Source: a bacterium
GTDB taxonomy: Bacteria > Patescibacteriota > Minisyncoccia > Moranbacterales > UBA2206
Assembly (NCBI GenBank): GCA_021785125.1
Contig: JAJYGF010000015.1
Coordinates: forward strand, 17,482 to 81,481
Reading direction: 5' to 3'
DNA: 64,000 bases
Shown: one piece after another, positions 2,314 through 50,245 of the stretch
How positions within the stretch are numbered: position 1 is the stretch's first letter
How the letters are laid out: each line of letters begins with the position of its first letter
Made by a program: the position numbers and the translations under genes
Notes under the pieces: generated by a model
Seen by the model: only the letters and a program-made list of their open reading frames with translations
Databases searched by the model: none
Told to the model about the DNA's origin: nothing

Positions 2314-2476
2314 TTTTATTTTAGATTGGTTTTTATTTTTCCCGATACATGCGTCACTGTAGAAATTATACAGGCTTATCGGCTTGTCTGCAAGACCGAC
2401 AGTGTGGATAATGCCGGTGCAATGTTTTTCGATTGCTGATGTATAATTAAAAAGGTAATTAATAAATTCCAAATAT

Positions 2477-3055: not shown

Positions 3056-3125
3056 ATCTAGGCTGAATGGAAATTCGGGCGCCGCGAGATTGCGGCGCCT
3101 TTGCTTTTTTATGTATAATGGGATC

Positions 3126-3791: not shown

Positions 3792-4641
3792 GGAACTGCA
3801 TAGTCTTAGGCTGGTGGTCATATCCTATCTGGTGGTTTTTGTCCTGAAGATTTCCGCATATTTCGCGACGGGCGTGATGGTCATCCTGGCGGAATCATTG
3901 CACACCTTGAGCGATATTTTCATTTCCGCCTTTCTTCTGATCGCACTGATCTGGTCCAGGCGAAAGGCGGATGAGAATTATATGTTCGGCTATGGCCGTG
4001 CTCAAAATATCGCAGCCTTGGTGGCGGCGATCCTATTCATCTCCTTTACCGGATTTGAATTATATAGAGAAGCCATTTCGCATCTATTTAATCCGAGCGT
4101 GGCTAATAGTTACCAAAATCTGAGTTGGGCAATCCTGATCATTCTGATTTCTATGATTATTTCGGCCGTGCCGATGCTATCACTCATCAGGCACGGGCGG
4201 AAAGGTGCGGCCGCCAAGGCTCAACTTTCCGAACTTTTCAATGATCAGCTCGGACTTATCGCGGCTTTGGCCGGCACGGTTTTCATCGCGATGGGCAAAC
4301 CGATCGCGGATTCGATCGCGACCATGATTGTGGCGACTATGATCGTTGTGAACGGCATAAGGTTGTTCATCGAAAATTCGCGGTTACTTTTGGGAAAATC
4401 ACCGGGTAACAAATTTGCCAGGCACTTGGAAGAGCTGGCATTGTCGGTGCGGGGAGTTGTCGGTTTTCATGATTTGAAAGCGGAATACATCGGACCGGAT
4501 GCGATCCATGCCGGCTTCCATATCGAAGTAGAAAAAAATCTTTCCGTCCAAGACGCGCACACGATTTGCAAAAAAGTTGAAGAAAAGGTTTATGAATGCA
4601 CGCTTTGCAAATCTTGCACGATCCACGTGGATCCTAAATAA
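3766..4641 (+). CDS. cation diffusion facilitator (CDF) family metal efflux transporter
   Basis: 291 aa; LAESLHTLSD, 6 TM, cytoplasmic C-terminal domain typical of CzcD/FieF family. Confidence 0.8.
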   Translation: MELELAKNKELHSLRLVVISYLVVFVLKISAYFATGVMVILAESLHTLSDIFISAFLLIALIWSRRKADENYMFGYGRAQNIAALVAAILFISFTGFELYREAISHLFNPSVANSYQNLSWAILIILISMIISAVPMLSLIRHGRKGAAAKAQLSELFNDQLGLIAALAGTVFIAMGKPIADSIATMIVATMIVVNGIRLFIENSRLLLGKSPGNKFARHLEELALSVRGVVGFHDLKAEYIGPDAIHAGFHIEVEKNLSVQDAHTICKKVEEKVYECTLCKSCTIHVDPK

Positions 4642-4670
4642 TTTATTTTTATTTACCCAAGGGTCTGATA

Positions 4671-4717
4671 GTTAACAATTGTTAACTATTGACAGTTTGG
4701 TTAACATGTGTTAACCT
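4671..4717 (+). promoter_or_regulatory. promoter (TTGACA 4689-4694, -10 TAACCT ~4712-4717) overlapped by four GTTAAC half-sites (4671-76, 4681-86, 4700-05, 4710-15) forming two 16-bp palindromes; putative autoregulatory operator
   Basis: GTTAACAATTGTTAAC perfect palindrome and GTTAACATGTGTTAAC directly upstream of HTH gene ATG at 4718. Confidence 0.55.
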
Positions 4718-4981
4718 ATGGATATGGAAGAAAAAAGATTTTTATCAACTGCCGAACTGGCTGAAATTCTAGGAATCAGCCGGATTGCGATATTCAAAAA
4801 GATAAAAGAAGGGAAAATAAAGGCCATCAAAATCGGTCGTAATTTTGCTATTGATAGAAATGATCTTGAAGAAATACTTGGCAGTGTCTTAAAAAATTCT
4901 GATAAGCGAGAAATTGATGATGCTGTCAAAAAGACAGTAAGGGAATATGGTGAAACACTAAAGAAGCTTGGCAAAGAATAA
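4718..4981 (+). CDS. excisionase/MerR-type helix-turn-helix DNA-binding protein; putative antitoxin
   Basis: 87 aa, LSTAELAEILGISRIAIFKKIKEGKIKAIKIGRNFAI = HTH_17/excisionase-family motif; immediately upstream of Doc toxin. Confidence 0.7.
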   Translation: MDMEEKRFLSTAELAEILGISRIAIFKKIKEGKIKAIKIGRNFAIDRNDLEEILGSVLKNSDKREIDDAVKKTVREYGETLKKLGKE

Positions 4982-4985
4982 TTTT

Positions 4986-5408
4986 ATGCGATTAAAGAAA
5001 ATCACGATCGCTGAAGTTGAATATCTCGCCCATAGGCTGGCAAACGAAATAATGGCGTGGGATGAACCCATTCCTGATTTTGGCACTCGCTTTCCAAACG
5101 TATTGGAAAGTTGTTTGGCAACGCCGTTCCAATCTTTTTCCAGGAGAGCATTATACAGAGGTCTGATCGGTAAGTCAGCCATACTTTTTTATTTGATGGT
5201 TAAGAATCATCCGTTTGAAAACGGAAACAAAAGGATTGCGGTAACCACGTTATTCGTGTTTTTGTATAAGAACGGCAAATGGTTGAGGGTTGATGATCAG
5301 GAGTTATATAATTTTGCCGTCTGGGTCGCGCAAAGCAATCCGAAGCTGAAAGATGAAACTGTTTTAGCGATTGAAAAATTTATAAAAACTTATATTGCGG
5401 ATTTATAA
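4986..5408 (+). CDS. Fic/Doc family death-on-curing-like toxin
   Basis: HPFENGNKRIAVT matches Doc motif HxFx(D/N)xNKR; 141 aa; alternative TTG start at 4968 overlaps antitoxin stop. Confidence 0.75.
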   Translation: MRLKKITIAEVEYLAHRLANEIMAWDEPIPDFGTRFPNVLESCLATPFQSFSRRALYRGLIGKSAILFYLMVKNHPFENGNKRIAVTTLFVFLYKNGKWLRVDDQELYNFAVWVAQSNPKLKDETVLAIEKFIKTYIADL

Positions 5409-5422
5409 GTTAAAATAAAGAA

Positions 5423-6267
5423 ATGAAAAACAATCTTAACGAATTCATCTTCGCCACATTTCAAGAAGCTTTTGAATTTATGCGGCCGTATCTTTCCAAC
5501 TACGAAGAATTTTCCAAGGCGCTGGCCAAAGAGACGCAGGTCAAAGAAGGCGCAACATCCAATACAATTTTGATGTGGAATTGGATAAGATCTTCAAAAA
5601 GAAAATCGCAGGATTCAAAATTGACGGAAAAATATTTTCCGAAGAAAGCGGCTGGGTTGAAATGGGCGAGAAAAAATATCGCGTCGTTTATGATCCGTTC
5701 TGCAACAGCTCGCTGGCTTCCAGAACATTCCTGGATGCGGCGGTCGGAATTTCCATCTTTGATTATAATTACAAATTCATCACTTCCGCGATCATGGATT
5801 ATCAGTTGGGAATCGTGGGCATAGTTGAAGACGGCGTGACAAATTTCTATCAGATCCAAACAAGAAATAGGTTGGAGTTTGAAAGGGATGTAGTTGAAAA
5901 GATCGAGAACGCGACGGTGATCATAACTTTGGAAACCAGAGAGGAAAGAAAAGGTCTGGATAAGGCTAGACATATTTTGGACAATGCCAAAAGAATAATC
6001 ATCAGCAGCGGACATATCTATTGGTTGCGCTTGGCAACCGGAAAGATTGAAGCGTATCTTGATCCGTTCGGGGGAGAGAAACTTTATGAGATGTTTGCTT
6101 GCACCGTGGCGCAAAACGCAGGTTGCGTGGTTACGGATCTCTCCGGCGAAAAATTTGATCCATCGAAGTTCCTCAAAACTTTTGAAGAAAACAAAGACTT
6201 CATATATTATCCGGTGGCAGCAGCGAATGAAAGGCTGCATCAAGAAGTTCTCTCCAGATTGGGATAA
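5423..6267 (+). CDS. inositol monophosphatase family protein, apparent frameshift near 5568-5575 (N-terminus 5423.. in frame A, remainder in frame of GTG 5575)
   Basis: frame A gives IMPase-like N-terminus ending ...KEGATSNT; other frame continues DVELDKIFKKKI...VYDPFCNSSLASR (DPIDGT-like)...; T4 run at 5568-5571. Confidence 0.6.
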
Positions 6268-6318
6268 GTCTGTGGATATAGTGTGTATATATCACCAAAA
6301 AACAACAATAATATCCCC

Positions 6319-6347
6319 TTGACGAATTTTGATTATTCAATTATTAT
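6319..6347 (+). promoter_or_regulatory. sigma70-like promoter TTGACG-17-TATTAT
   Basis: TTGACG 6319-6324, 17-nt spacer, TATTAT 6342-6347; ~290-nt leader to DUF3892 ATG. Confidence 0.4.
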
Positions 6348-6637
6348 AAATATAAGCTAAAGCGAAATTTAAGGCTGAAAGGAAAATCAGGAACCTCGGG
6401 CAAGTCCGACATCCTTTGATATCCTTATTCCCAAAACAAATAAGATAATTTTGAAAAAGAAAATCTAGTTTATTTTGAGAAGGAAATCAAATGTATGTAG
6501 CCTGATTTGGCAGTATTCATCTGGTTTCCTTTTTATTTTGGCAAAACTATGGAAAAAATCAGTGATGATTTGTTCCTAAGGTTTAAATATAATAATTTAA
6601 TTCCAGTTTCGAAAGGAGCTGGCTAGAAAGAAAAAAT

Positions 6638-6922
6638 ATGTCAGTAAGAATTACTTGTATTAACAAGGATAATGGGGATCATTATGACCAGCATCTGGCA
6701 ATAACTCATTTTGGATGGGTTGCTGATAATGGAAATAGTGGTAAGGCGAGTCTCGCCGAAATGATTGATTTCCTTGAAAAAGGAAACACGGCTTATGTAA
6801 AAGATAGCAGCGGGAAAGTTGCGGTTTTGGTTGTGCGAATTTCTGTTTATGGAAATAAATACGTCAAAACTGTTTCTGATGGAAGGGAGACTGATAATCT
6901 TCTAAATCTTTCAGAATGTTAA
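6638..6922 (+). CDS. DUF3892-family small protein
   Basis: 94 aa; ITCINKD...HxxITHFGW...GKVAVLVV...GNKYVKTVSDG...LLNLSEC pattern recalled for DUF3892. Confidence 0.55.
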   Translation: MSVRITCINKDNGDHYDQHLAITHFGWVADNGNSGKASLAEMIDFLEKGNTAYVKDSSGKVAVLVVRISVYGNKYVKTVSDGRETDNLLNLSEC

Positions 6923-6937
6923 TAAAGAGGCGAAAGT

Positions 6938-6972
6938 ATCTAAAAAATACTTTCGCCCTCTTCCCAAAAAAA
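6938..6972 (+). terminator. hairpin (AGAGGCGAAAGTA / TACTTTCGCCCTCT) after DUF3892 gene
   Basis: 13-bp inverted repeat with one bulge; no U-tract. Confidence 0.45.
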
Positions 6973-7013
6973 TTATATCACAGAATAATTAATAAAAAAA
7001 TAATTAAAACAAT

Positions 7014-7148
7014 ATGGGAAACTTTAATCCATACGATCAAGAAAATACAAACCGACAAATAATTGAGGCTCTAGAAAATATTGCTAAACAACTCCAGCAG
7101 TTAAATCATGAAATACGAAATATAAATCAAAGTATAAGAAGTAAATAA
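7014..7148 (+). CDS. 44-aa coiled-coil micro-protein (not in ORF track, below length cutoff)
   Basis: ATG 7014, MGNFNPYDQENTNRQIIEALENIAKQLQQLNHEIRNINQSIRSK*, followed by intrinsic terminator. Confidence 0.35.
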   Translation: MGNFNPYDQENTNRQIIEALENIAKQLQQLNHEIRNINQSIRSK

Positions 7149-7170
7149 TTTTAAGAATTCTAATGAAAAA

Positions 7171-7193
7171 CAGCTCTTAAGGGCTGTTTTTTT
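7171..7193 (+). terminator. intrinsic terminator CAGCTC-TTAA-GGGCTG + T7
   Basis: hairpin followed by TTTTTTT 7187-7193. Confidence 0.6.
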
Positions 7194-7265
7194 GTTTGCT
7201 CTCCTGTGGATAACTTAGCTTTGACAATGGCTGCTGGTGGAGTAAAATAGGGATAAGGTAATAAA

Positions 7266-7284
7266 AAGTGGGGGGAAGTGGTAA
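7266..7284 (+). promoter_or_regulatory. candidate MraZ box (GTGGG / GTGGT direct repeats 10 bp apart)
   Basis: AGTGGGGGGAAGTGGTA ~35 nt upstream of mraZ ATG. Confidence 0.3.
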
Positions 7285-7318
7285 ATTTAAAGCTTAATAT
7301 CCTCGCGCTTTTTCTTCT

Positions 7319-7753
7319 ATGTTTATCGGCGAATACTCACATTCCGTAGATGAGAAAAAAAGATTGGCCGTGCCAAGCAAATTTCGCGCTGAACTCAAGA
7401 ATAAAGTTGTGGTAACTCGCGGCTTGGATAAATGTTTGTTCATCTATCCAATGAAAGTTTGGGAAGAACTGGCGAACAAATTGGGAACGTTGCCGGTCGG
7501 AGAATCCGGCACACGAAGTTTCATTCGTCTGATGTTGGCCGGAGCGGTGGATGTGGATGTGGACAAGCAGGGAAGAATTTTGATTCCGGATTATTTGAAA
7601 GAATATGCAGGTCTTGCGAAAAATGTTGTGATCGCGGGCCTCTATAATCGCTTGGAAATCTGGGATGAAAAGAAGTGGGAGGAATATAAGAAAGGCGCTG
7701 AAAAAAATTCTGATGAAATCGCAGAACAGCTTGGAAAAATCGGAGTCTATTAA
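7319..7753 (+). CDS. mraZ: transcriptional regulator MraZ
   Basis: MFIGEYSHSVDEKKRLAVPSKFR... two SpoVT/AbrB-like halves, 144 aa. Confidence 0.9.
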   Translation: MFIGEYSHSVDEKKRLAVPSKFRAELKNKVVVTRGLDKCLFIYPMKVWEELANKLGTLPVGESGTRSFIRLMLAGAVDVDVDKQGRILIPDYLKEYAGLAKNVVIAGLYNRLEIWDEKKWEEYKKGAEKNSDEIAEQLGKIGVY

Positions 7754-7868
7754 AATTTTTAATTTTGTAATTTTTAATTTTTAAATAAATCTTAATTTTT
7801 AATGTTTAAAATTGGCATTAGAAATTATTTATAAAATTGAAAAATTAAGAATTAAAAATTGATCTGCT

Positions 7869-22369: not shown

Positions 22370-23422
22370 ATGCAAAAAAACGATAATTTAAATGAGAATA
22401 AAGCTAATGGAAAAAATTCGAGCTTCTTTGATCTGGCGGTGCTTTTATTGAATAATTTGCCTGAAAGATCGCGGGAAATAATCAAGAAAAGATACGGACT
22501 TTCCAATTCCAAGCCGGAAACCTTGGAAAAAATCGGCAAAGATTACGGCATAACCAGAGAACGGGTGCGCCAGATCATTGCCGATTCCGTAAGGAAAATT
22601 TCCAAACTTGCCGCTCTGCAAGAATTTAATATTGCAGAGGAGAAAATAATTTTGGAAATAGACGGAAGAAATGGTATAATTAGCGATAAGGAGCTGGCGG
22701 AAATTTTTGGCTCAAGTCAGAAAGAGTCCAATGCCGTGCGTTTTTTTGCCACATGCTCGGCTAAGATTTTCGAGACTGAAGAAAAAGGGCTGATCGCGCT
22801 TTCGTGGACAACCTCAGAAGACGTCGTGAAGAAAATTAAAGAATTCGCCGGCATAGTCAAAGAAGTCTTGATCGCAGCCGGCAAGCCGTTGACCGAAAAG
22901 GAATTGATGGGCAGTATAAGCGTCGATAAAGGCTATTCGGAAAGCCAAATTGTAAATTATTTGAAAGTGCTGGCTGAAATCGCCAAAAATCGGTTTGAAA
23001 AGTGGGGTTTTGCCGGTTGGATGGAAATTAATCCGAAAGGGACGCGCGAGAAGATTTATTTGATCTTAAAGGAAAAGAAAGTGCCGTTGCATTTTACGGA
23101 AATTGCGGTTCTGATCGATAAATCGGGAATAAGCAAGAAAAAATCTCATCCTCAAACTGTGCATAATGAATTGATAAAAGACGAGAGATTCATCTTGATC
23201 GGACGGGGAATATATGCGTTGAAGGAGTGGGGCTATGCTTCCGGCACCATCAAAGATGTTTTGGAGGACATTCTGACAAAGAGCGGCAAGCCGATGACCA
23301 AAGAAGAGATCTTGGAAGAAGTGACCAAGGCGAGGCGGGTCAAGCGCGCTACGGTCATGATCAATTTGAATAACAATCGGAAATTTATCAAGAAGGATAA
23401 CAAATATTCGTTGAAAAGATAA
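22370..23422 (+). CDS. DNA-binding protein with sigma-70 region-4-like HTH followed by HARE-HTH-like (RNAP delta N-domain-like) winged-helix repeats
   Basis: ETLEKIGKDYGITRERVRQIIADSVRKI resembles sigma r4; C-terminal segments ...HFTEIAVLIDKSG...DERFILIGRGIYALKEWG resemble HARE-HTH. Confidence 0.5.
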   Translation: MQKNDNLNENKANGKNSSFFDLAVLLLNNLPERSREIIKKRYGLSNSKPETLEKIGKDYGITRERVRQIIADSVRKISKLAALQEFNIAEEKIILEIDGRNGIISDKELAEIFGSSQKESNAVRFFATCSAKIFETEEKGLIALSWTTSEDVVKKIKEFAGIVKEVLIAAGKPLTEKELMGSISVDKGYSESQIVNYLKVLAEIAKNRFEKWGFAGWMEINPKGTREKIYLILKEKKVPLHFTEIAVLIDKSGISKKKSHPQTVHNELIKDERFILIGRGIYALKEWGYASGTIKDVLEDILTKSGKPMTKEEILEEVTKARRVKRATVMINLNNNRKFIKKDNKYSLKR

Positions 23423-23449
23423 GCGATAGGCGCAAAAAACAAAAAACAA

Positions 23450-24694
23450 ATGGATCAAAACAATTTCATGGGCATATTGGGAAGCTTCGCGCAGCCGTTC
23501 TATCAGGTTTGGTGGATGGTTATGCCGGTGCTTCTTTTTTATTTGTTCGCGTTTCTTTGGGACGACTATGTCAAGGGCGAATGGAGCGGCAAGATGGAAT
23601 GGACGATGATTGAGATCATTCCGCCCAAAGATCTGGAAAAGGGGCCGAAATTGATGGAATCGATATACCAGGGATTATGCGGAGTCGTCGTCAGCTACAA
23701 CGCGTTCGATGAATATGTCATGGGAATGTTCACGGACAAGTTCAGTTTCGAACTGGTCGGTTTGGGCGGAGAGGTGCATTTTTATGTGCGTGTCCAGAAA
23801 AAATTTAGAAATTTGCTGGAAGCGCAAATATACGCTCAATACCCGGATGCCGAAATTTTGGAAGTGGACGACTATGTCAACAATTTTCCCCGCGTTGTGC
23901 CGAATAGCGGTTGGAATTTATGGGGTTCTGACATGGTTTTGATTAAGCCGGACGCGTATCCATTGAGGACGTACGACAAGTTCGAAGAAGACATCACTGG
24001 CACCATGATCGATCCTATCGCTGGATTTGTGGAGCTTTTCGCTTCGACACCGCCAGGCCAGAATATGTGGCTGCAGATCATAGTTCAGCCGCTGGAAGAA
24101 GTCTGGAGGAAAAAATCTGGCGCGGAAAAAGAAATTCAGAAGCTGGCCGGCCGGGCGAAAGAATCCAGGGGGCTGTGGTCGGACGTGACGGATGTGTTTA
24201 CCAATCTCTTTAAAGCGCTTTGGCAGCCGGTGGAATTTCCATCGACCAAGAAAGAAGAGCAGCCATTGGAATTCAGATTGACGCCTGTAGAAAAAGACGT
24301 TCTCAAGGCAGTGGAAGAAAATCTCGGCAAGAACCAGTATAAGATAAAGATGAGGTTTATCTATGTAGGCAAGCGTGAAGGTTTCGATATGGGCTACGTG
24401 ACCGGATTTTTCGGCGTCACCCGGCAGTTCAATGATTTGAATCTCAATGGAATCAAGCCAGATGATTCCAAGACGACCGCGCATTTCGTGGCGATAGATA
24501 CGCGCCTTGACACGATGAAGCGCCGCATATATGAACGCTATCGCAAAAGAAATACGGATGGCAAAACCTTTGTTTTTTCGACTTCCGAACTGGCTACCAT
24601 CTATCATTTCCCGGATATGGCAGTCCGTACGCCGGCGTTGTCAAGAGTGGAATCCAAGCGGGGAACGGCGCCATCCAATCTGCCCACCGCGTAA
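23450..24694 (+). CDS. hypothetical N-terminally membrane-anchored protein; partner of downstream coupling-ATPase
   Basis: 414 aa; one N-terminal TM (FYQVWWMVMPVLLFYLFAFLW); no recognisable catalytic motifs. Confidence 0.5.
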   Translation: MDQNNFMGILGSFAQPFYQVWWMVMPVLLFYLFAFLWDDYVKGEWSGKMEWTMIEIIPPKDLEKGPKLMESIYQGLCGVVVSYNAFDEYVMGMFTDKFSFELVGLGGEVHFYVRVQKKFRNLLEAQIYAQYPDAEILEVDDYVNNFPRVVPNSGWNLWGSDMVLIKPDAYPLRTYDKFEEDITGTMIDPIAGFVELFASTPPGQNMWLQIIVQPLEEVWRKKSGAEKEIQKLAGRAKESRGLWSDVTDVFTNLFKALWQPVEFPSTKKEEQPLEFRLTPVEKDVLKAVEENLGKNQYKIKMRFIYVGKREGFDMGYVTGFFGVTRQFNDLNLNGIKPDDSKTTAHFVAIDTRLDTMKRRIYERYRKRNTDGKTFVFSTSELATIYHFPDMAVRTPALSRVESKRGTAPSNLPTA

Positions 24695-24696
24695 TA

Positions 24697-24725
24697 TTGA
24701 AAATTATCGATTTTTTCAATATAAT
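24697..24725 (+). promoter_or_regulatory. sigma70-like promoter TTGAAA-17-TATAAT
   Basis: TTGAAA 24697-24702, TATAAT 24720-24725, flanked by TTGAAAA/TTTTCAA inverted repeat. Confidence 0.5.
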
Positions 24726-24776
24726 TAGGAATCTAATATGTCATAGCTGAAAGCTCAAGCTGTCGGCTGATCAAAA

Positions 24777-26654
24777 ATGTCGGAAATAAATTTTTTTGCA
24801 AAAACCAATTTCAGGAATAAGGAGCAGATTTTTGGCATCAAGCGCGATGATCGGCGCCGCCATATGTATATCATCGGAAAGACCGGCATGGGAAAGTCCA
24901 ATTTGCTGGAAAATATGGCCATCCAGGATATCCGCAACGGCGAAGGTGTTTGCGTGGTCGATCCGCATGGGGAATTCGCGGAAAAAATGCTGAAAGCCGT
25001 GCCAGCCAGCCGCGTCAATGATGTCATCTATTTCAATCCGGCGGATGCGGATTTTCCGATCGCTTTCAACATTCTGGAATCAGTCGAAGAAGACAAAAAA
25101 AATCTGGTGGCTTCCGGTATGATGGGCGTGTTCAAGAAAATTTGGCCGGACGTATGGAGTCCGAGAATGGAATACATCTTGAACAATACCATTCTGGCGC
25201 TTTTGGATTATCCCGGTTCGACCATGCTTGGTGTGAATCGCATGATGGCCGATTCGGCATATCGCAAAAGGATCTATCCGAAAATCAAGGATCCAGTGGT
25301 TAAGTCGTTCTGGATTAATGAATTCGACAAATGGGATGACAAATTCAGAAAAGAGGCGGTGGCGGCTATCCAGAACAAAGTCGGACAGTTTTTGTCGTCT
25401 TCTGTCATCCGGCATATCGTCGGACAGCCTAAATCCACCATAGACATGCGTGAGATCATGGATAATCAGAAGATCCTGATTGTCAATCTGTCCAAAGGAA
25501 GGATTGGAGAAGATTCCATGCGCCTCTTGGGCGGTATGATCGTCACTAAAATCCAATTGGCGGCCATGGGGCGCGTCGCAATTTCCGAACTGGAAAGGAA
25601 AGATTTCTATCTGTATGTGGACGAGTTCCAAAATTTTGCCACGGAAGCGTTTGCCAATATCCTTTCCGAAGCCAGAAAGTATCGCTTAAATCTGATTTTA
25701 GCGCACCAATATATTAACCAGCTCATTTTTGACGGGAACACGACCGTACGCGATGCCGTTTTTGGCAACGTGGGGACCATAGTATCGTTCCGGGTCGGAG
25801 CGGAAGACGCGGAGCATCTGGAAAAGGAATTTGATCCGGTGTTTTTGATGAATGACATCGTCAATCTGTCCAAATATCACGTCTACCTGAAGCTTATGAT
25901 CGACGGTGTGGCGGGAGATGCGTTTTCGGCCACGACCTTGCCGCCGTTCAATTTGGATGAAACGGTGGACAATGAGGAAAAGATCATACGGGTGTCGCGA
26001 GAGAGATATAGCCGGCCGAAGGCGGAAGTGGAAGATCGGATCGCCCGCTGGAGCGGCATGGAAGTTTTCAAAGAGAATCCCTTGGGCGGCAAGGAAGAAT
26101 CGGATAATGCGGGCGAAAATTACGATTCGGAATTGTATGAAGAAAAACCTCATTTGTCGTCGAAAAGAAGCCGTTTGTCCGAAAATTACATCAAAAACGC
26201 GGTCAATAATTCAGCCATCCAGCTGTCGATGCCGGTGCGAGAAACTTATTCTGCCGAATGTGCCAGCTGTGGTGCCGGTATCACGGTGCCGTTTAAGCCG
26301 GATCCGAATCGGCCGACTTTTTGCCGTGAGTGTCTGAAGGATTATCAACGGTCAATGGCCAGGAAAAGATTGGTGGCTGAAAAGAGAGAGAGCGCTTCCG
26401 CTACTGTCCATGCTGACAATACGATCGTGAAAAAAGTTTTGCCGAAAGAGAACAACCAGCCGGAAGCTCAAGCCAAGAGAACTTCCGAACATGTCGTATA
26501 CGCGCCGCAGGACCGGCCGATGAGTCTGTCGCAGATGTCGCATATCGCGCCGAAAAAATTCAAGCCGCAACGGCCGAAGCCGAATGTGAATCTTGAAGAA
26601 GTCAGAGAGCTTCTGGATAAAACCAGGAAGCCGAAAGAAAATGGAGGACAATAA
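24777..26654 (+). CDS. type IV coupling protein-like ATPase (VirD4/TraG/TrwB family, FtsK-HerA superfamily) with C-terminal zinc ribbon and basic tail
   Basis: Walker A IIGKTGMGKS, Walker B YLYVDEFQNF, LILAHQYINQL (TraG-D_C-like), CASCG...CRECL zinc ribbon, K/R/P-rich C-terminus; 625 aa. Confidence 0.7.
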   Translation: MSEINFFAKTNFRNKEQIFGIKRDDRRRHMYIIGKTGMGKSNLLENMAIQDIRNGEGVCVVDPHGEFAEKMLKAVPASRVNDVIYFNPADADFPIAFNILESVEEDKKNLVASGMMGVFKKIWPDVWSPRMEYILNNTILALLDYPGSTMLGVNRMMADSAYRKRIYPKIKDPVVKSFWINEFDKWDDKFRKEAVAAIQNKVGQFLSSSVIRHIVGQPKSTIDMREIMDNQKILIVNLSKGRIGEDSMRLLGGMIVTKIQLAAMGRVAISELERKDFYLYVDEFQNFATEAFANILSEARKYRLNLILAHQYINQLIFDGNTTVRDAVFGNVGTIVSFRVGAEDAEHLEKEFDPVFLMNDIVNLSKYHVYLKLMIDGVAGDAFSATTLPPFNLDETVDNEEKIIRVSRERYSRPKAEVEDRIARWSGMEVFKENPLGGKEESDNAGENYDSELYEEKPHLSSKRSRLSENYIKNAVNNSAIQLSMPVRETYSAECASCGAGITVPFKPDPNRPTFCRECLKDYQRSMARKRLVAEKRESASATVHADNTIVKKVLPKENNQPEAQAKRTSEHVVYAPQDRPMSLSQMSHIAPKKFKPQRPKPNVNLEEVRELLDKTRKPKENGGQ

Positions 26655-26907: not shown

Positions 26908-28050
26908 ATGGCTGTAAAAAAACGCAAAAAAAGAGTGATTGTCGGCATGTCGAGCGGAGTGGATTCTTCGGTAGCCGCCGCGCTCTTGAAAGAACAGGGC
27001 TATGATGTCGCGGGAGTTTTTATGCATTTTTGGAAAGAGCCGACCCAGAATAGCTTGGTTGAAAATAAGTGCTGTTCTTTGGAATCACTGGAGGACGCCC
27101 GCAAAGTCTGTCGCATTTTGGACATTCCGCTTTATACGGCGAATGCGGAAAAAGAATTCAAGCGCGAAGTCGTGGATTATTTTTTGACAGAATATGCGGC
27201 CGGCCGCACGCCCAATCCGTGCGTGGCTTGCAATGAGCACATCAAATTCAACGTGCTTTTCAAGAAGATGCTGGAGATGGACGGAGATTACGTTGCTTCT
27301 GGCCACTATGCCCAGAAGCAACAATTTCCAATTTCCAATTTCCAATTTCCAAACAAATCCCAATTTTCAAATTTCAAAAACGAAAAATATATTTATAAAC
27401 TTTATCAGGGAGTTGATAAAGACAAGGATCAATCATATTTCTTGTATAATTTCAGTCAAAAGCAGCTATCAAAAATATTATTTCCGGTCGGCGGATATGA
27501 AAAAAAAGAAATAAGAAAGATTGCGGAAAAATTGAAGCTGCCCGTTTTCAATAAAGATGATTCTCAGGGACTTTGCTTCACGCCGGAAAAATATCCGGAA
27601 AATTTCCTGCGCCGCAATCTGAAACTCAAAAAGGGAGAGATAATCAACACGCAGGGCAAGGTGGTGGGCGAGCATGAGGGCTTGCCGCTCTATACGATCG
27701 GTCAAAGGCGTGGCATCAACATCGGCGGCGACGGACCGTATTATGTGGTGGATAAGGACATTAAAAAAAACATCCTGGTCGTGACGAATGATGAGAAAGA
27801 TCCGGCCTTGGTCAGAAAAGACATGGAGGTGGAAAAAGTGAATTGGATCGTGGCAGAGCCGGCATTACCTTGTAAGGTCTTGATCAAAAATCGATATCGC
27901 CATCCGGCTGTTTCTGCTATAATTAAGAGTGTCAAAGCCGGTATTTATGAGGTTGAATTTGAAGAACCGCAGCGAGCTATCTCACCCGGCCAATCCGCGG
28001 TTTTCTATACCGAAGAAGGCGAGATGATCGGGGGAGGAAGGATAGTATAA
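26908..28050 (+). CDS. mnmA: tRNA-specific 2-thiouridylase MnmA
   Basis: VIVGMSSGVDSSVAA PP-loop, CCSLE, DKDQSYFL; carries an unusual (AATTTCC)4-encoded insertion. Confidence 0.9.
   Translation: MAVKKRKKRVIVGMSSGVDSSVAAALLKEQGYDVAGVFMHFWKEPTQNSLVENKCCSLESLEDARKVCRILDIPLYTANAEKEFKREVVDYFLTEYAAGRTPNPCVACNEHIKFNVLFKKMLEMDGDYVASGHYAQKQQFPISNFQFPNKSQFSNFKNEKYIYKLYQGVDKDKDQSYFLYNFSQKQLSKILFPVGGYEKKEIRKIAEKLKLPVFNKDDSQGLCFTPEKYPENFLRRNLKLKKGEIINTQGKVVGEHEGLPLYTIGQRRGINIGGDGPYYVVDKDIKKNILVVTNDEKDPALVRKDMEVEKVNWIVAEPALPCKVLIKNRYRHPAVSAIIKSVKAGIYEVEFEEPQRAISPGQSAVFYTEEGEMIGGGRIV
27323..27350 (+). repeat. (AATTTCC)x4 heptanucleotide tandem repeat inside mnmA coding sequence
   Basis: read directly; encodes FPISNFQFP insertion. 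Confidence 0.9.
28018..28044 (+). repeat. 27-bp direct repeat copy 1 (GGCGAGATGATCGGGGGAGGAAGGATA) = 3' end of mnmA
   Basis: 26/27 identical to copy at 29554-29580. Confidence 0.85.
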
Positions 28051-28185
28051 TATAAAATATTAAATTTTAGCTTAAATAAAGCAAATTATAGCGAATTTCT
28101 GAATGTATTATACTGGCATTGTAATATTTAATGGAATATATTATAATGACAATGTAAACAAGTGTAAATCATTAGACTCAGCAAA

Positions 28186-29502
28186 ATGATAAATGCCAAT
28201 TTATTAAAAGAAATCATTACTGAACAACGAGGATTGTTTTCGAATACCGTCGGCTCTATTGATCGGGATATTTTGCATACTGAAAATTTTTCCAAAATTT
28301 GTCGTCTGAAAGAAGCGGTAATTGTTACTGGTATCAGGCGAAGCGGGAAATCATATCTTTTGAGGCTTGTTTGGGAAAAAATAAAAAAAGAAGAAAAGGC
28401 AGTTGAAAATAATTTTTTGTATTTTAATTTTGAAGACGAGAAACTCCTTCGGTTTCGAGCTGATGATTTTGATTTGATGATGGAAAGTTATTTTGAATTG
28501 TTTGATGTAAGGAGAGATAAAAAAGTCTATTTGTTTTTTGATGAGATTCAGAATATTCCTGGATGGGAAAAGTTTATTAATCGCTTATTAGAAAAAGATG
28601 AATATAAGATATTTATTACCGGCTCAAACGCAACCTTGCTTTCGAAAGAAATAAGTAGTTCGCTTACGGGGAGGAATTATTCGATAATCGTATATCCGCT
28701 GTCTTTTAGGGAATTTGCGCGCTATAAACTTGGCAGAGAATTGAAATCTGCGGAAATGCACGAACAAAAGAGCAGGATCGCTGTGAAAAAAGTTTTTAAG
28801 GAATATGTTGATAATGGAGGCTTCCCGGAAATAGCCATCAATAATTTTCGTCCTCTTCTTCAAGAATATTTGAAAAATATAATTTATCGGGATATAGTTC
28901 TGCGCTATAAAATAAAAAATGAAGCAAATCTGCGGGAAATTTCCGCATTTATCATTTCCAATATTGGAACAATATTGAGTCTTGAAAAAATACGCAAAAT
29001 GACAAAGGTGAGAAATTTGATGACAATCAAAAATTATCTTTCTCATCTCGAAGACTCATTTCTATTTTTTCTCGTGCCTAAACACAGCTATTCTATTAAA
29101 AAGCAGATATACAATCCGGATAAAATATATGTTATTGATACGGGAATGTATAATGAAGTGGCATTTCTAAATAGCCCCAATGACGGGCGCCTGTTAGAAA
29201 ATCTGGTTTTTCTAGAACTTCGGCGGTTAAATAGGGGCGTATATTATTTTGAAGATAAAAAAGAATGCGATTTTGTTATCCAAGAGAAAAATAAAATAAA
29301 GCAAGCTATTCAAGTTTCCAAATTGTTGTCGGTTGAAAATAAAGAAAGAGAGATTGCGGGATTGGTTGAGGCTATGGAGAAATATAGTTTGGAAGAAGGA
29401 CTTATCTTAACGGAAGACGGAGAGGATGATATAAAAGTTGGGGATAAAAAGATTCTAGTCAGGCCAATATATAAATGGCTCTTATTCGGTTTGGAAAAAT
29501 AA
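28186..29502 (+). CDS. AAA+ ATPase of the COG1373 / DUF4143 family
   Basis: GIRRSGKSYLL Walker A variant and LFFDEIQ Walker B typical of COG1373; 438 aa. Confidence 0.8.
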   Translation: MINANLLKEIITEQRGLFSNTVGSIDRDILHTENFSKICRLKEAVIVTGIRRSGKSYLLRLVWEKIKKEEKAVENNFLYFNFEDEKLLRFRADDFDLMMESYFELFDVRRDKKVYLFFDEIQNIPGWEKFINRLLEKDEYKIFITGSNATLLSKEISSSLTGRNYSIIVYPLSFREFARYKLGRELKSAEMHEQKSRIAVKKVFKEYVDNGGFPEIAINNFRPLLQEYLKNIIYRDIVLRYKIKNEANLREISAFIISNIGTILSLEKIRKMTKVRNLMTIKNYLSHLEDSFLFFLVPKHSYSIKKQIYNPDKIYVIDTGMYNEVAFLNSPNDGRLLENLVFLELRRLNRGVYYFEDKKECDFVIQEKNKIKQAIQVSKLLSVENKEREIAGLVEAMEKYSLEEGLILTEDGEDDIKVGDKKILVRPIYKWLLFGLEK

Positions 29503-29553
29503 CCGTAAAAGGCAATCTCGCCCGGCTAATCAGCAGTTTTCTACATGAAAAGC

Positions 29554-29580
29554 GGCGAGATGATCGGGGGAGGGAGGATA
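29554..29580 (+). repeat. 27-bp direct repeat copy 2; encodes remnant MnmA C-terminus (..SGEMIGGGRIK*)
   Basis: GGCGAGATGATCGGGGGAGGGAGGATA; frame gives GEMIGGGRIK vs authentic GEMIGGGRIV. Confidence 0.85.
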
Positions 29581-29590
29581 AAATAAAAAT

Positions 29591-30232
29591 TATGAAAGAT
29601 GATATAAAAATTCAAGCTGACAAGATTGAGCAGGTATATAAAGAATATTCTGACAAGATGGCAGAGTTAACAAAGGAACCGATGAAGAAAAAAATAATTT
29701 GCGTAAATTATTTGAAAGCCAATTTCTTTCATATTCTGATAATGCAAAGCATATTGCTTTAGAAAATTATGATTTTCTGGAACGGGCTATGGAAAACGCT
29801 GATGATTTAGCACGAGCCAAGAATATGAATGAAAAAGAAAGGGCGAAAATACTTTCTGACATAAGGAAGTATACGTATCCGGCAGAAAAAGCCCTACGTC
29901 AGGAGCAGATGTTTTATAAAAAGCCAAAACAAGTCATCACAAGCGAAGAATATTGGAAAATTTATTTCTCTCAACATCCAGCAAAGAAGCCTAATAAAAT
30001 AATTTATTATGAAGGAAGTGACCCAACAGCTGCTTTGAATGAATGGCAAGAGAAGAATGGCATCAAAAGGTTTTCTAAAAATAATGAAAGTTTCCATCTA
30101 GGGTTTGAGGAAAGGAGAATGGAAGAAAAAGGCAAAATTCCTGAATCTGTAAACAAATATCGGAATAGATTTAGGAGTTTGGCTGGAAAAGTCGTAGAAG
30201 ATTATTATGAAAATAAAAGTGTAGCAGTTTAA
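29591..30232 (+). CDS. hypothetical protein, apparent frameshift in A7 run (29688-29694); alternatively TTG start at 29699
   Basis: ORFs 29475..29762 and 29699..30232 overlap in different frames around AAAAAAA. Confidence 0.4.
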
Positions 30233-30253
30233 TTTTTTATTTTTATTAAAACT

Positions 30254-30532
30254 ATGATCAAAGTCGAAGGGCGCAATCTTTGGCGCGGGGGAACAAAAAT
30301 AGGATATGTCGGGCATGACTATATTCTCGACCATGCCGGCGAAAAGGTCGGTTTCTTTGCTGGCAATCATATCATGGACCGTACCGGCCACAAAATCGCC
30401 GAAATTTCCGGCGATTATATCTTAGTGTATGGAGGCCAGAAAATCAGGATTGAGGACAATAACCGTGACGTGATCGACGGCGAACTTTCGAATGTCGAAA
30501 GGGCAGCGGTCAGACTTACATTGGGTGAATAA
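30254..30532 (+). CDS. small protein built of ~16-aa tandem repeats (hGxhxGxHIhDxxGxK)
   Basis: IGYVGHDYILDHAGEK / VGFFAGNHIMDRTGHK / IAEISGDYILVYGGQK. Confidence 0.5.
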   Translation: MIKVEGRNLWRGGTKIGYVGHDYILDHAGEKVGFFAGNHIMDRTGHKIAEISGDYILVYGGQKIRIEDNNRDVIDGELSNVERAAVRLTLGE

Positions 30533-30540
30533 ACAAATAA

Positions 30541-31599
30541 ATGGGAAACAAAATTTTTCTCGGATTACTAGTTTTTATTCCGATCACACTGATCTCGCAT
30601 TATATGAATGCTTCGCCGATGCTGACTTTTTTTCTTTCGGCATTGGCGATCGTGCCGTTGGCGCGCTACATCGGCGAAGCCACGGAAGTCTTGTCGGAAT
30701 ACACCGGGCCGGCTTTGGGCGGACTTCTTAATGCGACGTTCGGCAACGCGACCGAACTCATCATAGGCATTTTTGCTATCCGTGCCGGACTGGTCGAAGT
30801 GGTGAAAGCATCGATCACCGGATCAATAATCGGAAATCTCCTCCTGGTTCTCGGCATGGCTATGTTCTTCGGCGGGATGAAGCATAAGAAACAGGAATTC
30901 AACAAGACCGCGGCGATGGCCAGCTCTTCAACATTGCTCCTGGCGGTGGCGGCACTGGTCATGCCGGCCGTTTTCAGACTCACCTCGCCGGCCATTGGTT
31001 CGCAAATCATCGAGGAATTAAGCGTGTTTGTGGCAGTCATCATGATGATAATTTATTTCTCCAGCCTGTGGTTCATGCTTTATACGCACAAGCATCTGTA
31101 TGCCGAAGAAGTTGGAGAAATCGAAGAAAAGGAAGCCAAATGGAGCAAGGCCAAAACACTTTCAGTCCTGTTAGTTGCGACGGTCGCCGTCGCCTGGATG
31201 AGTGAAATTCTGGTCGGATCCATTGAGCCGCTTGTGACGAGTTTCGGCTGGACGGAACTTTTCATCGGTGTGATTTTCGTGGCGGTTGTCGGAAACGCGG
31301 CCGAGCACACCTCAGCCCTTATCATGGCCAGAAAAAACAGGATGGATCTGACGCTCCAGATCTCGATCGGCAGCGGCACGCAGATCGTCATGTTTGTGGC
31401 TCCTTTTTTGGTGCTTATCAGCTTGCTTTTCAAAGAACAGATGAGCTTGATTTTCAACAGCTTTGAATTGGCGGCTATCGTTCTGGCGGTCATGATAGCC
31501 AATCTTGTCGTCGAAGACGGGGAAAGCAATTGGTTCGAGGGCCTGCAGCTTATGATGGCCTATGCCATAATGGGCGTCGCTTTCTTCTTTCATCCTTAA
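30541..31599 (+). CDS. Ca2+/H+ antiporter (CaCA family, ChaA/CAX-like)
   Basis: GNATELIIGIFA and GNAAEHTSAL alpha-repeat motifs, 11 TM. Confidence 0.85.
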   Translation: MGNKIFLGLLVFIPITLISHYMNASPMLTFFLSALAIVPLARYIGEATEVLSEYTGPALGGLLNATFGNATELIIGIFAIRAGLVEVVKASITGSIIGNLLLVLGMAMFFGGMKHKKQEFNKTAAMASSSTLLLAVAALVMPAVFRLTSPAIGSQIIEELSVFVAVIMMIIYFSSLWFMLYTHKHLYAEEVGEIEEKEAKWSKAKTLSVLLVATVAVAWMSEILVGSIEPLVTSFGWTELFIGVIFVAVVGNAAEHTSALIMARKNRMDLTLQISIGSGTQIVMFVAPFLVLISLLFKEQMSLIFNSFELAAIVLAVMIANLVVEDGESNWFEGLQLMMAYAIMGVAFFFHP

Positions 31600-31616: not shown

Positions 31617-31892
31617 ATGGACGAATTTAATCAAAACACGGGACAGGATCAGGACAATCATCGCAAAAAAAATGATCTCCAGCGCGAGATAATCATGTCA
31701 GAAGGAGATTTGCACAAAATTTCCAATGAAAAGATTGCGATCGAGGCGGAAATCCGGCGGCTGAAAAAAGAAAGCGACCAAATAAAAATAAATATGCAGC
31801 AACATCAGGAGAGGTTGAAAAAATTAGACCAGGATATTATGATGAAAGAATCGGAGATAGCCCATCTCAAGAAGCAATTAAATCTGCTGTAA
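31617..31892 (+). CDS. coiled-coil hypothetical protein
   Basis: 91 aa; ATG 31617 chosen (ORF track start 31530 overlaps chaA). Confidence 0.4.
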   Translation: MDEFNQNTGQDQDNHRKKNDLQREIIMSEGDLHKISNEKIAIEAEIRRLKKESDQIKINMQQHQERLKKLDQDIMMKESEIAHLKKQLNLL

Positions 31893-45826: not shown

Positions 45827-45893
45827 CGATTAGAATTTTTAATTTCCAATTTTTAATTTTTAAATAATTTCTAATGTTTAAAAATTATAAAAT

Positions 45894-48350: not shown

Positions 48351-48488
48351 ATATTAAAATCCCCGAAGGGATTTTTCAAATTTTATAATTTTTTAATTTT
48401 GTAATTTTATAAATAAATCTAAATTTTCAATGATTAAACATTAGATATTTAGAAAATTATTTAAAAATTAAAAATTGGAAATTAAAAA

Positions 48489-48698
48489 TTAATTTTCCAG
48501 TATCCTGATATCTCCCTCCGGCGTCTCTTCAATTTGGTATCCGGCATCCAAGATGGCCTGTTTCAATTTTTCCATATCTTCATGGGAGATTTCGTGTCCG
48601 CTCGCGCTATGGTTATGTCCGCATCCACAGGCATGTTTTTCTGCGGTTTCATCTTCATTGTGATGGCAATGTCCGCAGCCGCAAGAATCGTGTGTCAT
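48489..48698 (-). CDS. 69-aa Cys/His-rich putative metal-binding micro-protein, translationally coupled to cysS
   Basis: [39 protein letters not shown]...; start codon overlaps cysS stop (shared coordinate 48698). Confidence 0.5.
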   Translation of the reverse strand: MTHDSCGCGHCHHNEDETAEKHACGCGHNHSASGHEISHEDMEKLKQAILDAGYQIEETPEGDIRILEN

Positions 48699-50158
48699 TA
48701 TTTTTTCCCACCACGTCGGGCGGGCTTGATTATATAATTATTATTTCTTGTATCTTCTATGATATAGCCCAATTTGTCAATCGCGTCGCGCAGCTCGTCC
48801 GATTTCCGGAAGTCCTTATTTTCTCGGGCGACCTTTCTTTCTTCGGCCAGAGCCTTGATTTCTTTCGGAATTTCAATGACTTCCAATTTTAATCCTAAAA
48901 TCCTGGCAAAAATTTCAAGCAGTTTTTTGGCTTTACCCGGATTGCCGAGCAGATTTTCATCCATCAGCTTGTTGGCGTCGCTTGCGAATTCAAAAACGAC
49001 AGACAGAGCTTTGGGCGTATTGAGATCGTCATCTATGGCTTTTTCGAAATCTTTCCTGTACTTGCCCGTTGTCATGTTGGAAAGTTTGTCGCTTCCGGTG
49101 ATTTTGTGGTCGAGCAATCGTGCATAAAAATTATTTAAAGCTGTCAGATTGGCTTCAGCTTGATCCATGGCGGTCCAGGTGAAATTCATCTGGCTGCGAT
49201 AATGGGCGGACAGGATTGCCATGCGCAGATCCATCGGGGAATAACCCTTTTCTTTAATATCGGACAAGGTATAGAAGTTACCTTTGGATTTCGACATCTT
49301 TTCGCCATCCGCCAAAAGATGTCGCGTGTGGATCCAGTAATTGACGAATTTGGCTCCGCTGTAGCATTCTGACTGGGCGATTTCCGCTTCATGGTGAGGA
49401 AATATGTTATCTTCGCCGCCGGTGTGGATATCGATCGTGTCGCCGAGGTATTGCATGCTCATGGCGGAACACTCGATGTGCCAGCCCGGATAACCCACGG
49501 ACCACGGCGAATCCCATTTCATGATGTGATTGGCGGGAGCTTTCAGCCATAAAGCGAAGTCCCAAGGATTTTTTTTGTCCGGATGCTCTTCCAATCGGGC
49601 GCCGACTTTCAAGTTTTCCAGCGTGTTGCCGGAAAGTTTTCCGTATTCCGGAAATTTGGTCACGTCAAAGAATACGTTGCCATTCTTTTCGTATGCATAA
49701 CCTTTTTCCAAAAGGCCTTGGATCAATTTGATCATTTCTTGGATGTGGGCGGAAGCGCGCGGAAAATAATTCGCCGGCAAAATATTCATCTCCTTTTCTG
49801 TCTCTTTGAAAATTCCTTCGTAAAAACGCGCGATTTCTTCCGGAGTCTTATGCTCCTTTTTGGCTTTTTTCTCGATTTTGTCTTCGCCGGTGTCGCCCTG
49901 ATCCAGATCGTCGTTGGTCAGGTGTCCGACGTCGGTGACGTTTTTGATCTGGCGGACTTCATAACCCAGATATTCCAGATAGCGGCGCAAGACGTCGGGC
50001 GTGACAAAAGTGCGGATGTTGCCGATATGGATGAAATCATAAACCGTCGGCCCGCAAGTGTACATGCTTGCTTTGCCCGGATTAATCGGAGCAAATTCTT
50101 CTTTGGTTTTGGAAAGGGTATTGTAGAGCTTAAGCATTATAGGATTTATAATTTTCAA
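48698..50158 (-). CDS. cysS: cysteine--tRNA ligase
   Basis: HIGN ([10 protein letters not shown]) and KMSKS motifs, zinc-binding Cys; 486 aa. Confidence 0.9.
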
Positions 50159-50245
50159 TTATTAATTTTTAAACAATTTCTAATTTAAAAATTTTATAAA
50201 TTATTAATTGTTTGAAAATTGAAAATTAATACTTGAAAATTTTAT

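Follow-up and report, generated by a model that had tools for sequence, protein, structure and literature searches.

The window analysed here is a stretch of 64,000 nt (64 kb) of a Moranbacteria genome (assembly GCA_021785125.1, contig JAJYGF010000015.1, positions 17,482 to 81,481 of the forward strand). Within it, a cassette of ~1.45 kb with one ATPase gene of the PDC-S01 type is located directly downstream of mnmA and is bounded on its far side by a second copy of the mnmA 3' end. As a whole, the window covers a core region of the chromosome in this member of the candidate phyla radiation (CPR) and contains cell-wall, isoprenoid, ribosomal-protein, chaperone, aminoacyl-tRNA-synthetase and replication genes, recR included. 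The genomes of CPR/Patescibacteria are very small and contain few classical mobile elements. The features of the locus are collected in Table 1, together with the repeats found at related loci, which are designated by L numbers throughout.

The target gene mnmA is intact, and its product shares 58-81% identity with the MnmA proteins encoded at 31 Moranbacteria/Parcubacteria loci. Its last 89 nt recur behind the ATPase gene: the two copies (27962-28050 and 29498-29586) align without gaps at 76% identity, both end at a TAA stop codon, and the local-alignment z-score of the pair is 24-27 against shuffled sequences. An earlier note on this DNA, made from the letters alone, had described a 27-bp direct repeat with 26 of 27 positions matching and had read its distal copy as a fossil of the MnmA C-terminus; both statements are borne out, and the 27-bp repeat proves to be the core of the longer one. 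The core 27-mer, GGCGAGATGATCGGGGGAGGAAGGATA, is found exactly at 28018-28044 and with one mismatch at 29554-29580. Mismatches are distributed unevenly along the 89 nt (1/27 in the core, 20/62 in the rest; Fisher p=0.0027). The intact gene end reads PQRAISPGQSAVFYTEEGEMIGGGRIV* and the fossil P*KAISPG*SAVFYMKSGEMIGGGRIK* (asterisks are stop codons), in register with the strongly conserved MnmA C-terminus of the 31 relatives. The fossil begins within the stop-codon region of the ATPase gene (stop codon 29500-29502) and ends 5 nt upstream of the ATG of the next gene.

Table 1. Features of the mnmA locus in the window, followed by the host sequences copied at the sister loci of the ATPase family
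Locus	Feature	Position	Strand	Repeat length	Basis or remark
Window	mnmA (tRNA 2-thiouridylase), intact target gene	26908-28050	+		Pfam tRNA_Me_trans HUP, PRC-barrel and C-terminal domains, E 3.7e-76
Window	Left direct repeat, functional last 89 nt of mnmA, stop codon included	27962-28050	+	89 nt	Repeat search; copied sequence is the mnmA 3' end
Window	Repeat core, 26/27 near-identical, candidate exchange segment	28018-28044	+		1/27 vs 20/62 mismatches
Window	AT-rich spacer with cassette promoter/operator, 135 nt	28051-28185	+		Promoter scan, conserved motif block
Window	Cargo ATPase, 438 aa: ORC/Cdc6-like AAA+, winged helix and DUF4143 (PD-(D/E)XK superfamily); PADLOC PDC-S01	28186-29502	+
Window	Right direct repeat, fossil copy of the mnmA 3' end, orphaned and carrying two new stop codons	29498-29586	+	89 nt	Alignment, MnmA register
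Window	Low-GC accessory gene, frameshifted in A7 run (29688-29694)	29592-30232	+		Outside the repeat-bounded cassette, inside the low-GC tract
Window	Small repeat protein, accessory	30254-30532	+		Weak beta-flower similarity: Pfam Bflower_2 24.5 bits, cut-off 38
Window	Na+/Ca2+ exchanger-family gene, native-like GC	30541-31599	+		Directly after mnmA in relative L015 only
Window	Small coiled-coil gene, conserved right neighbour of mnmA in relatives, far edge of the hotspot	31617-31892	+		tblastn synteny
L038	3' end of gene resembling a type IV secretion system (T4SS) gene			85 nt	Cassette also with 462-aa gene
L046	3' end of peptidoglycan-binding-domain gene			~161-200 nt
L044	3' end of minus-strand SpoU methylase			81 nt	Cassette also with 86-aa CopG-like gene
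L049	5' end of ABC ATPase gene			83 nt	Cassette within MacAB-like operon
L061	Sequence just past the ftsW stop codon			22 nt	Perfect repeat
L035	5' end of one Wzt-like ABC gene			172-205 nt	Two ATPase genes and NYN-domain gene

A common low-complexity Gly-codon motif, which the earlier note had named as one of two findings that would overturn its reading, does not account for the pair: with up to 3 mismatches allowed, the 27-mer has two matches and no third copy in the window (0 expected, 100 shuffles), and the 89-nt similarity lies in the mnmA frame. At least 9 contigs (NCBI, ENA, Logan), which come from different samples and were built by different assemblers, show the identical layout, so it is not an assembly artefact. 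The assemblies of the ERZ27233562 sample and GCA_021833205.1 (L054, L055, L060) break in the 3' part of the ATPase gene (~29300-29450) and not at the repeats, perhaps owing to low coverage or local strain variation. Three Logan contigs (L037, L039, L045) were considered as circular forms of the cassette and rejected: they merely break within the repeats, and in L039 the 22 nt by which the two ends overlap are the repeat itself.

The gene order around mnmA over the 31 related loci is a T4SS-coupling-like gene, mnmA, a small coiled-coil gene and alaS. The coiled-coil gene is syntenic by tblastn in 17 loci (L001-L015, L028, L031). It follows mnmA directly in 8 loci, 7 of these among the 15 closest relatives, with a gap of ~20-180 nt (L001, L003, L005, L006, L007, L012, L013, L014), which represents the empty state of the junction, and at least 7 further loci carry unrelated inserts of 0.7-5.5 kb in this place. 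In the window the junction holds 3.5 kb, comprising the ATPase cassette, the fossil, the frameshifted gene, the gene for the small repeat protein and the cation exchanger gene. The guanine plus cytosine (GC) content is 29-36% over 28050-30250 vs 44-53% in the flanks, and the low-GC tract extends beyond the right repeat and takes in the frameshifted gene. The ATPase is absent from the relatives, the frameshifted gene and the repeat protein have no tblastn match (E<=1e-5) in 32 related loci, and no other mnmA fossil lies downstream of mnmA in the 31 relatives. Because the junctions of the relatives vary, the ATPase is absent from them and its GC content is low, the mnmA/coiled-coil junction is a variable hotspot and the cassette is foreign. 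The proposal of the earlier note that foreign DNA was inserted at the mnmA 3' end is thus confirmed, and its view of the right-hand genes (29592-30532) as accessory agrees with the lack of tblastn matches. The empty site that it had suggested, with mnmA joined directly to the sequence from 29581 on, was looked for in the relatives and not found; there, the gene after mnmA is the coiled-coil gene or, in L015, the cation exchanger. Among the ~60 proteins scanned in the window, none has an integrase, transposase or resolvase domain, and the note was right in seeing no integrase or transposase at the locus.

The ATPase gene is the single real gene between the repeats and, as the note had stated, is of the COG1373 type and has its own AT-rich promoter. 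Its product matches AAA_14 (E 1.8e-37) and DUF4143 (E 1.3e-22) of Pfam and, over residues 33-433, the PADLOC model PDC-S01 (PDLC04787, E 5.4e-111). The Walker A (G49-x4-G54 K55 S56) and Walker B (D119 E120) residues are invariant across 40 homologues. No solved structure of the family is detectable by sequence. The AlphaFold model, calculated with the 40 homologues as input, has a predicted local distance difference test score (pLDDT) of 90.6; its best fold matches in the PDB are Orc1/Cdc6, CED-4/Apaf-1 and RFC subunits (AAA+ module and winged helix), and the whole-chain search returned AAA+ / winged-helix matches only. DUF4143/COG1373 has been placed in the PD-(D/E)XK superfamily (PMC3424549). 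Within this domain the 40 subfamily members all retain E338 and D362, but have Q376-V-(S/T) where the canonical motif would be (D/E)xK, which suggests a non-canonical or inactive nuclease site and makes nuclease activity uncertain. E-V-K occupies this position in ATPase1 of L035 and in the second ATPase of L069. PDC-S01 is listed as the fourth most common 'defence' system of prokaryotes, with validation pending (PMC12988326), and one representative gave no protection vs T4, T5 and T7 in E. coli B (PMC12881386). The cargo is probably a nucleic-acid-sensing defence or selfish ATPase and a putative anti-phage candidate.

The promoter scan places -35 (TTGTAA, 28119-28124) and -10 (TATAAT, 28142-28147) boxes in the 135-nt spacer, within a block where ATATTAC / TTGTAATAT motifs occur repeatedly and in inverted form. 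The motif ATTGTAATAT at 28118-28127 overlaps the -35 box, and ACAATGTAAA is found at 28149-28158. The order of elements is ATATTAC, ATTGTAATAT, ~17 nt, TATAAT and then AATATAATAT, and the block is conserved upstream of 11/11 homologous ATPase genes (window 28105-28158, L035 4940-5000, L038, L040, L044, L046, L049, L051, L061, L062, L063). Since these lie in unrelated genomic contexts, the ATPase gene travels with its own promoter/operator. The arrangement suggests autoregulation via the winged-helix domain of the ATPase.

Homologues of the ATPase are numerous in CPR metagenome bins of several classes (45-65% identity); a search of JGI metagenome contigs for close relatives gave just two loci, at 41% identity. 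DNA context was obtained for 12 related ATPase genes at 11 independent CPR loci, and direct repeats copying adjacent host sequence flank 8 of the 12 genes (7/11 loci, Table 1). With a phage locus described below, the repeats are 22, 81, 83, 85, 89, 118, ~161-200 and 172-205 nt long; the fossil lies on either side of the cassette and derives from a 5' or a 3' gene end. No recombinase domain was found among the genes within 4-5 kb of the repeat-bearing CPR loci. A decayed island, as the earlier note had considered, is unlikely, since this minimal integrase-less layout recurs at 7/11 CPR loci and in one phage. As far as our literature searches show, a recurrent layout of this kind across the ATPase family has no earlier description.

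The region 3240-7461 of L035 consists of three single-gene cassettes (ATPase1, ATPase2, NYN). Behind each of them the ABC gene's 5' end is copied, and upstream a fourth copy persists as a 33-nt remnant. Compared with the intact gene end, the series runs from this remnant to copies of 91% and then 95% identity, the farthest being the most decayed. By this gradient the stack is a record of sequential displacement, with the oldest orphan farthest from the intact gene. Tandem duplication of an ATPase gene together with the gene end was rejected, as the two ATPases are 25% identical vs 86-95% for the flanking fragments. The NYN cassette has the same footprint, so the process is not strictly ATPase-specific. 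At L061, a pair resembling a diversity-generating retroelement (bAvd and reverse transcriptase, 6362-7847) is located 1.4 kb downstream of the ATPase gene; in the orthologous L040 this region is replaced by a SNF2 helicase gene, with the breakpoint at the ATPase stop codon.

Detailed comparison of the two copies in the window gives 6 synonymous and 7 non-synonymous differences, the latter at residues variable among orthologues (TEE/MKS, V/K, R/K). Only two changes in the fossil are inactivating, both of them C-to-T stops. The corresponding synonymous/non-synonymous counts are 9/0 for fossil 2 (p 5e-7) and 10/4 for fossil 1 (p 6e-5) of L035, 16/15 for L046 (p 7e-4; 80% identity, no stop in 67 codons), 6/1 for L038 (p 1e-3), 5/2 for the phage locus L069 (p 0.01) and 5/4 for L049 (p 0.04). 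Pooled, 57 synonymous stand against 33 non-synonymous differences, with an expected synonymous fraction of 0.20-0.26. The bias is seen in 7/8 repeat pairs analysed; the eighth, L044, has no difference in 63 coding nt. Because the differences are mainly synonymous, the copies are, by this measure, alleles which accumulated their differences in separate lineages, under coding constraint, before they were joined. Classical target-site duplication with neutral decay is ruled out by the synonymous bias. The simple duplication of the target proposed in the earlier note does not hold either, given that the copies differ mostly at synonymous or naturally variable positions and that the sister repeats range from 22 to 205 nt. 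Long identical blocks beside diverged stretches occur also in L038, L046 and L049; such mosaic identity is expected if exchange fell in the longest identical patch. The last 80 nt of the left repeat are 82.5% identical to the closest relative, L004, vs 75.5% for the whole of mnmA; over these 80 nt the left copy matches L004 at 66 positions and the fossil at 51. This leans towards the fossil arm as the imported copy, as a circle crossover would predict.

The layout is also found in a phage. Contig L069 (IMGVR_UViG_3300029967_000193; identical in L110) encodes a 31%-identical homologue, whose stop codon is followed at once by a second copy of the final 118 nt of terL. Its region 2179-7006 holds two DUF4143 ATPase genes between terL and the next conserved gene, with the terL fossil between them. 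In 80 related phages (L111-L190; 78-88% TerL identity) terL is followed directly by the next gene, with neither ATPase nor fossil. A search for an empty-site variant of the L069 phage itself gave only the identical second contig. Flanking repeats are lacking for 29/32 homologues on viral contigs, where L069 is the 1 clear case, and for the 5 plasmid-borne homologues compared, which are from other phyla (0/5). Two distant homologues from IMG/VR may represent larger versions of the same phenomenon: one lies between two 72%-identical large serine recombinase genes, which form long repeats (L093, 1807-6536), and the other is accompanied by a 526-nt gene-end duplicate and a 186-nt piece (L105, 2216-7546). 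A 38%-identical homologue is inserted between hsdR and hsdM in a type I restriction-modification operon of Treponema saccharophilum plasmid pTS1 (L065, NZ_AP025289.1 297232-298467), another adjoins a viperin gene (L064), and homologues are present on 169 Acinetobacter plasmids.

Some features of the surroundings are to be mentioned. The gene at 29592-30232 is split by a -1 frameshift in the A7 run; the same two open reading frames (ORFs) are called in further assemblies of this population, so that the split is no sequencing error but marks a real pseudogene or a slippery site. The gene product has no family match. The block 22370-26654 upstream of mnmA, syntenic across Moranbacteria, encodes a sigma70-r4/HARE-HTH protein, a DUF8128-like protein and a TrwB/HerA-like ATPase with a treble-clef zinc finger; in L038 the 3'-end duplication affects a related T4SS-like gene. 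Within mnmA, an in-frame insert of low GC content and low complexity (QQFPISNFQFPNKSQFSNFK) is located at 27317-27381. The length of this linker differs among the relatives (a similar insert in L001 and L005, none in L006 and L013), and its DNA resembles a family of intergenic repeats (AATTTTTAATTTT-type) that are AT-rich, have a period of 8 nt and are found at 7737-7851, 45831-45892, 48363-48490 and 50140-50234. Palindromic intergenic elements of ~85-90 nt with two GC-rich hairpins, resembling repetitive extragenic palindromes (REP) or miniature inverted-repeat transposable elements (MITE), occur in two copies per locus in L049 (604-684 and 2356-2443) and L025 (5355-5445 and 7619-7709); they are distinct from the gene-end fossils.

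On balance, the low-GC single-gene cassette was probably brought into the hotspot by integrase-free, homology-anchored recombination with DNA of a related bacterium, a reading to which we give a modest preference. As we infer them, the donor, the recombination pathway and the foreign copy would be the following. The donor DNA would have carried the cassette (promoter/operator and PDC-S01-type ATPase) joined to the donor's own allele of the mnmA 3' end. One exchange would have been homologous, inside the mnmA end and most likely in the 27-nt core. The other junction, between the ATPase stop codon and position -89 of mnmA, would be an illegitimate joint with patchy microhomology (TTTGGAAAAATAA followed by CCG in the cassette, TTTGAAGAA followed by CCG in mnmA). 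Patchy similarity of 10-13 nt is seen at the presumed joint in the window and in L069. Two routes, a Campbell-type single crossover of a (re)circularised fragment and homology-facilitated illegitimate recombination (HFIR, 'gene-end displacement'), would give the same product: intact mnmA, the cassette and the orphaned allelic last 89 nt of mnmA, in which the two stop codons would have been gained later. When non-replicating DNA with one-sided homology enters E. coli, single crossover of re-circularised molecules is indeed the main outcome, with 109-950 bp of a gene end duplicated in 56/60 clones (PMC3240628). For effector-immunity arrays of the type VI secretion system (T6SS) and for Rhs loci, displacement of the HFIR type has been put forward as the process that leaves orphaned 3' gene ends behind (PMC5361080).

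Several observations weigh against this reading. The closest ATPase homologue is only 65% identical, and the mnmA-ATPase adjacency to be expected in a donor is absent from the 31 Moranbacteria loci. No strain-level empty site was found, as 16/16 contigs retrieved via the exact MnmA or beta-flower protein carry the cassette. The assignment of the fossil as the imported copy rests on 80 nt at ~75% background identity and is not decisive. Random fragment ends do not explain why the fossil begins 0-7 nt past the ATPase stop codon in 6/8 junctions (0, 0, 0, 3, 4 and 7 nt) or why homology between L040 and L061, which are 90% identical, ceases 2 nt before the ATPase stop codon. The homology-anchored route also leaves unexplained the first arrival of the ATPase beside 7 different genes and the stacking of unrelated family members at one junction in L035 and L069. 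No gene-end fossil was found in ~0.47 Mb of control Moranbacteria loci, which include at least 7 other inserts at the mnmA junction; the few repeat pairs there belong to arrays of paralogues or to the palindromic, REP-like elements between genes (L025, L049). The contrast with 7/11 ATPase loci is unexpected for a purely cargo-agnostic process.

The stop-codon-tight junctions, the association with the family and the stacking in L035 and L069 keep alive a more novel explanation, namely that the AAA+ / PD-(D/E)XK-superfamily protein inserts its own gene at gene termini, e.g. by binding to its palindromic operator and a nearby break or recombination. We regard it as unlikely. Just as doubtful is the wider claim that AAA_14-DUF4143 (PDC-S01) genes are, or include, integrase-free single-gene mobile cassettes whose ATPase promotes copying of its own unit into gene ends of related genomes and phages. 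The layout is tied to the family (8/12 CPR genes and the phage homologue vs none in the controls), the breakpoint between L040 and L061 falls at the stop codon, the unit always includes its own conserved promoter/operator, and homologues of 55-65% identity occur over several CPR classes beside at least 7 different genes. It is in line with this that a PDC-S01 representative lacks phage protection in E. coli (PMC12881386) and that the embedding of such genes in operons is an open question (bioRxiv 10.1101/2024.01.29.577857). On the other hand, near-identical copies at different sites were not seen (there was a single context for each of the protein clusters looked up), the cassette ends have neither conserved terminal sequences nor inverted repeats, and the (D/E)xK position of the nuclease is altered in all 40 subfamily members. 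The NYN cassette of L035 has the footprint without an ATPase, flanking repeats are wanting at the plasmid and nearly all viral homologues as counted above, and the allelic divergence of the fossils would require an extra assumption.

The repeats could instead be the attL and attR of a site-specific cassette, the mnmA-end mimic representing attP and an Xer-like or island integrase from elsewhere acting in the 27-nt core. This mobilisation in trans, one of the options of the earlier note, found no support, and we consider it distinctly improbable. A near-identical core with diverged arms is the classical att picture, and a circular form would give one topology in all cases (ATPase stop, gene-end mimic, promoter). 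Homologues are also common on Acinetobacter plasmids (169 records), on which Xer-mobilised modules (pdif modules) are known; a cassette mobilised in trans would resemble these or cis-mobilizable elements (CIMEs). But a recombinase is absent from the 64-kb window and from the 4-5 kb around the 7 repeat-bearing CPR loci, and dif-like or attC-like palindromes at the boundaries were not seen on inspection, no formal motif search having been made. A single trans-acting site-specific enzyme is implausible because the cores share no common sequence between loci and both the length and the position of the repeats (5', 3' or intergenic) differ. More remote still is a long target duplication in situ, by staggered breaks 22-205 nt apart or by replication template switch, the intact copy being changed afterwards through allelic replacement or gene conversion. 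The near-perfect repeats of L044 (78/81; 63 coding nt identical) and L061 (22/22) would fit, as would the duplicated segment always having one edge in a short intergenic region; the 27-nt identical block of the window lies on the cassette side, which fits partial replacement of the intact copy. Such replacement would hardly be efficient across the arms in the window, which are 36% diverged. In L046, moreover, the part of the repeat nearest the cassette is the most diverged (~50%) and yet encodes a similar peptide, the differences of L035 fossil 2 are 9/9 synonymous and spread along 171 nt, and we know of no enzyme that yields duplications so variable in length. The unit is not a transposon or insertion sequence, as it has no transposase and no conserved termini and its repeats are allelic and variable in length. 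Like an integrative element it has direct repeats of a gene end; it encodes no tyrosine or serine recombinase, and the loci share neither target nor core, with 7 different genes and unrelated repeats of 22-205 nt.

The locus and its sister loci represent a sequence-level footprint of integrase-free gene gain, in which a gene is placed at a gene boundary beside the orphaned allelic end of its neighbour. Gene-end fossils provide a simple searchable marker of it. If they reflect general recombination-driven traffic, they would be useful to date and trace horizontal transfer in uncultured lineages. If it were true that the footprint belongs to the ATPase family, a major 'defence' family would be reclassified as a selfish element, and self-mobilising PDC-S01 would explain the frequent embedding of these genes within operons and other defence systems.

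Among known systems, the locus is best filed as a variant of gene-end displacement or Campbell-type duplication, with a self-contained PDC-S01 cassette at a housekeeping gene of a CPR bacterium. When e14 or phage 21 integrates into icd of E. coli, the element supplies a replacement 3' end and the distal pseudo-copy differs mostly at synonymous sites. The duplicated 3' end and the preserved target gene are common to these elements and to the mnmA locus, but e14 and phage 21 bring their own integrase and tens of kb, whereas here a single gene of 1.45 kb is found without a recombinase. Integron cassettes are similar in being single-ORF units with boundaries tight on the ORF, in stacking at one site and in having, right behind the stop codon, a variable segment for recombination. 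In contrast to them, the present cassettes have neither IntI nor an attC-type palindrome, their post-stop segment is a copy of a host gene end, and they carry their own promoter.

The closest likeness in arrangement is to the displacement arrays of Rhs and T6SS effector-immunity loci (PMC5361080), which likewise consist of an intact gene, new cargo and an orphaned old end, with allelic orphans, no recombinase and, after repeated events, stacked orphans of which the oldest is farthest (here L035). There, however, the variable toxin end is displaced and the cargo is the immunity gene. Here the duplicated end, which may be 5' or 3', is that of a neighbouring housekeeping or structural gene (mnmA, ABC ATPase, SpoU, the FtsW flank, terL), and the cargo is an unrelated self-contained ATPase unit. 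Campbell-type crossover in E. coli conjugation combines insertion with gene-end duplication, one short homology and one illegitimate circle joint being sufficient, and in that system it greatly outnumbered true HFIR (56/60 clones; PMC3240628). That was a laboratory construct under antibiotic selection, whereas the events considered here took place naturally, in CPR bacteria and in a phage. Their homology, at 22-205 nt, is shorter as well as more diverged, and the circle joint lies unexpectedly near the ORF end. The guilt-by-embedding study from which the PDC-S01 model originates does not describe how embedding happens (bioRxiv 10.1101/2024.01.29.577857). Like the embedded defence genes, the PDC-S01 family occurs as single-gene units between intact neighbours (hsdR/hsdM on the Treponema plasmid, MacA-like/ABC in L049); the flanking gene-end duplications distinguish the present loci and may be the mechanistic footprint of such embedding.

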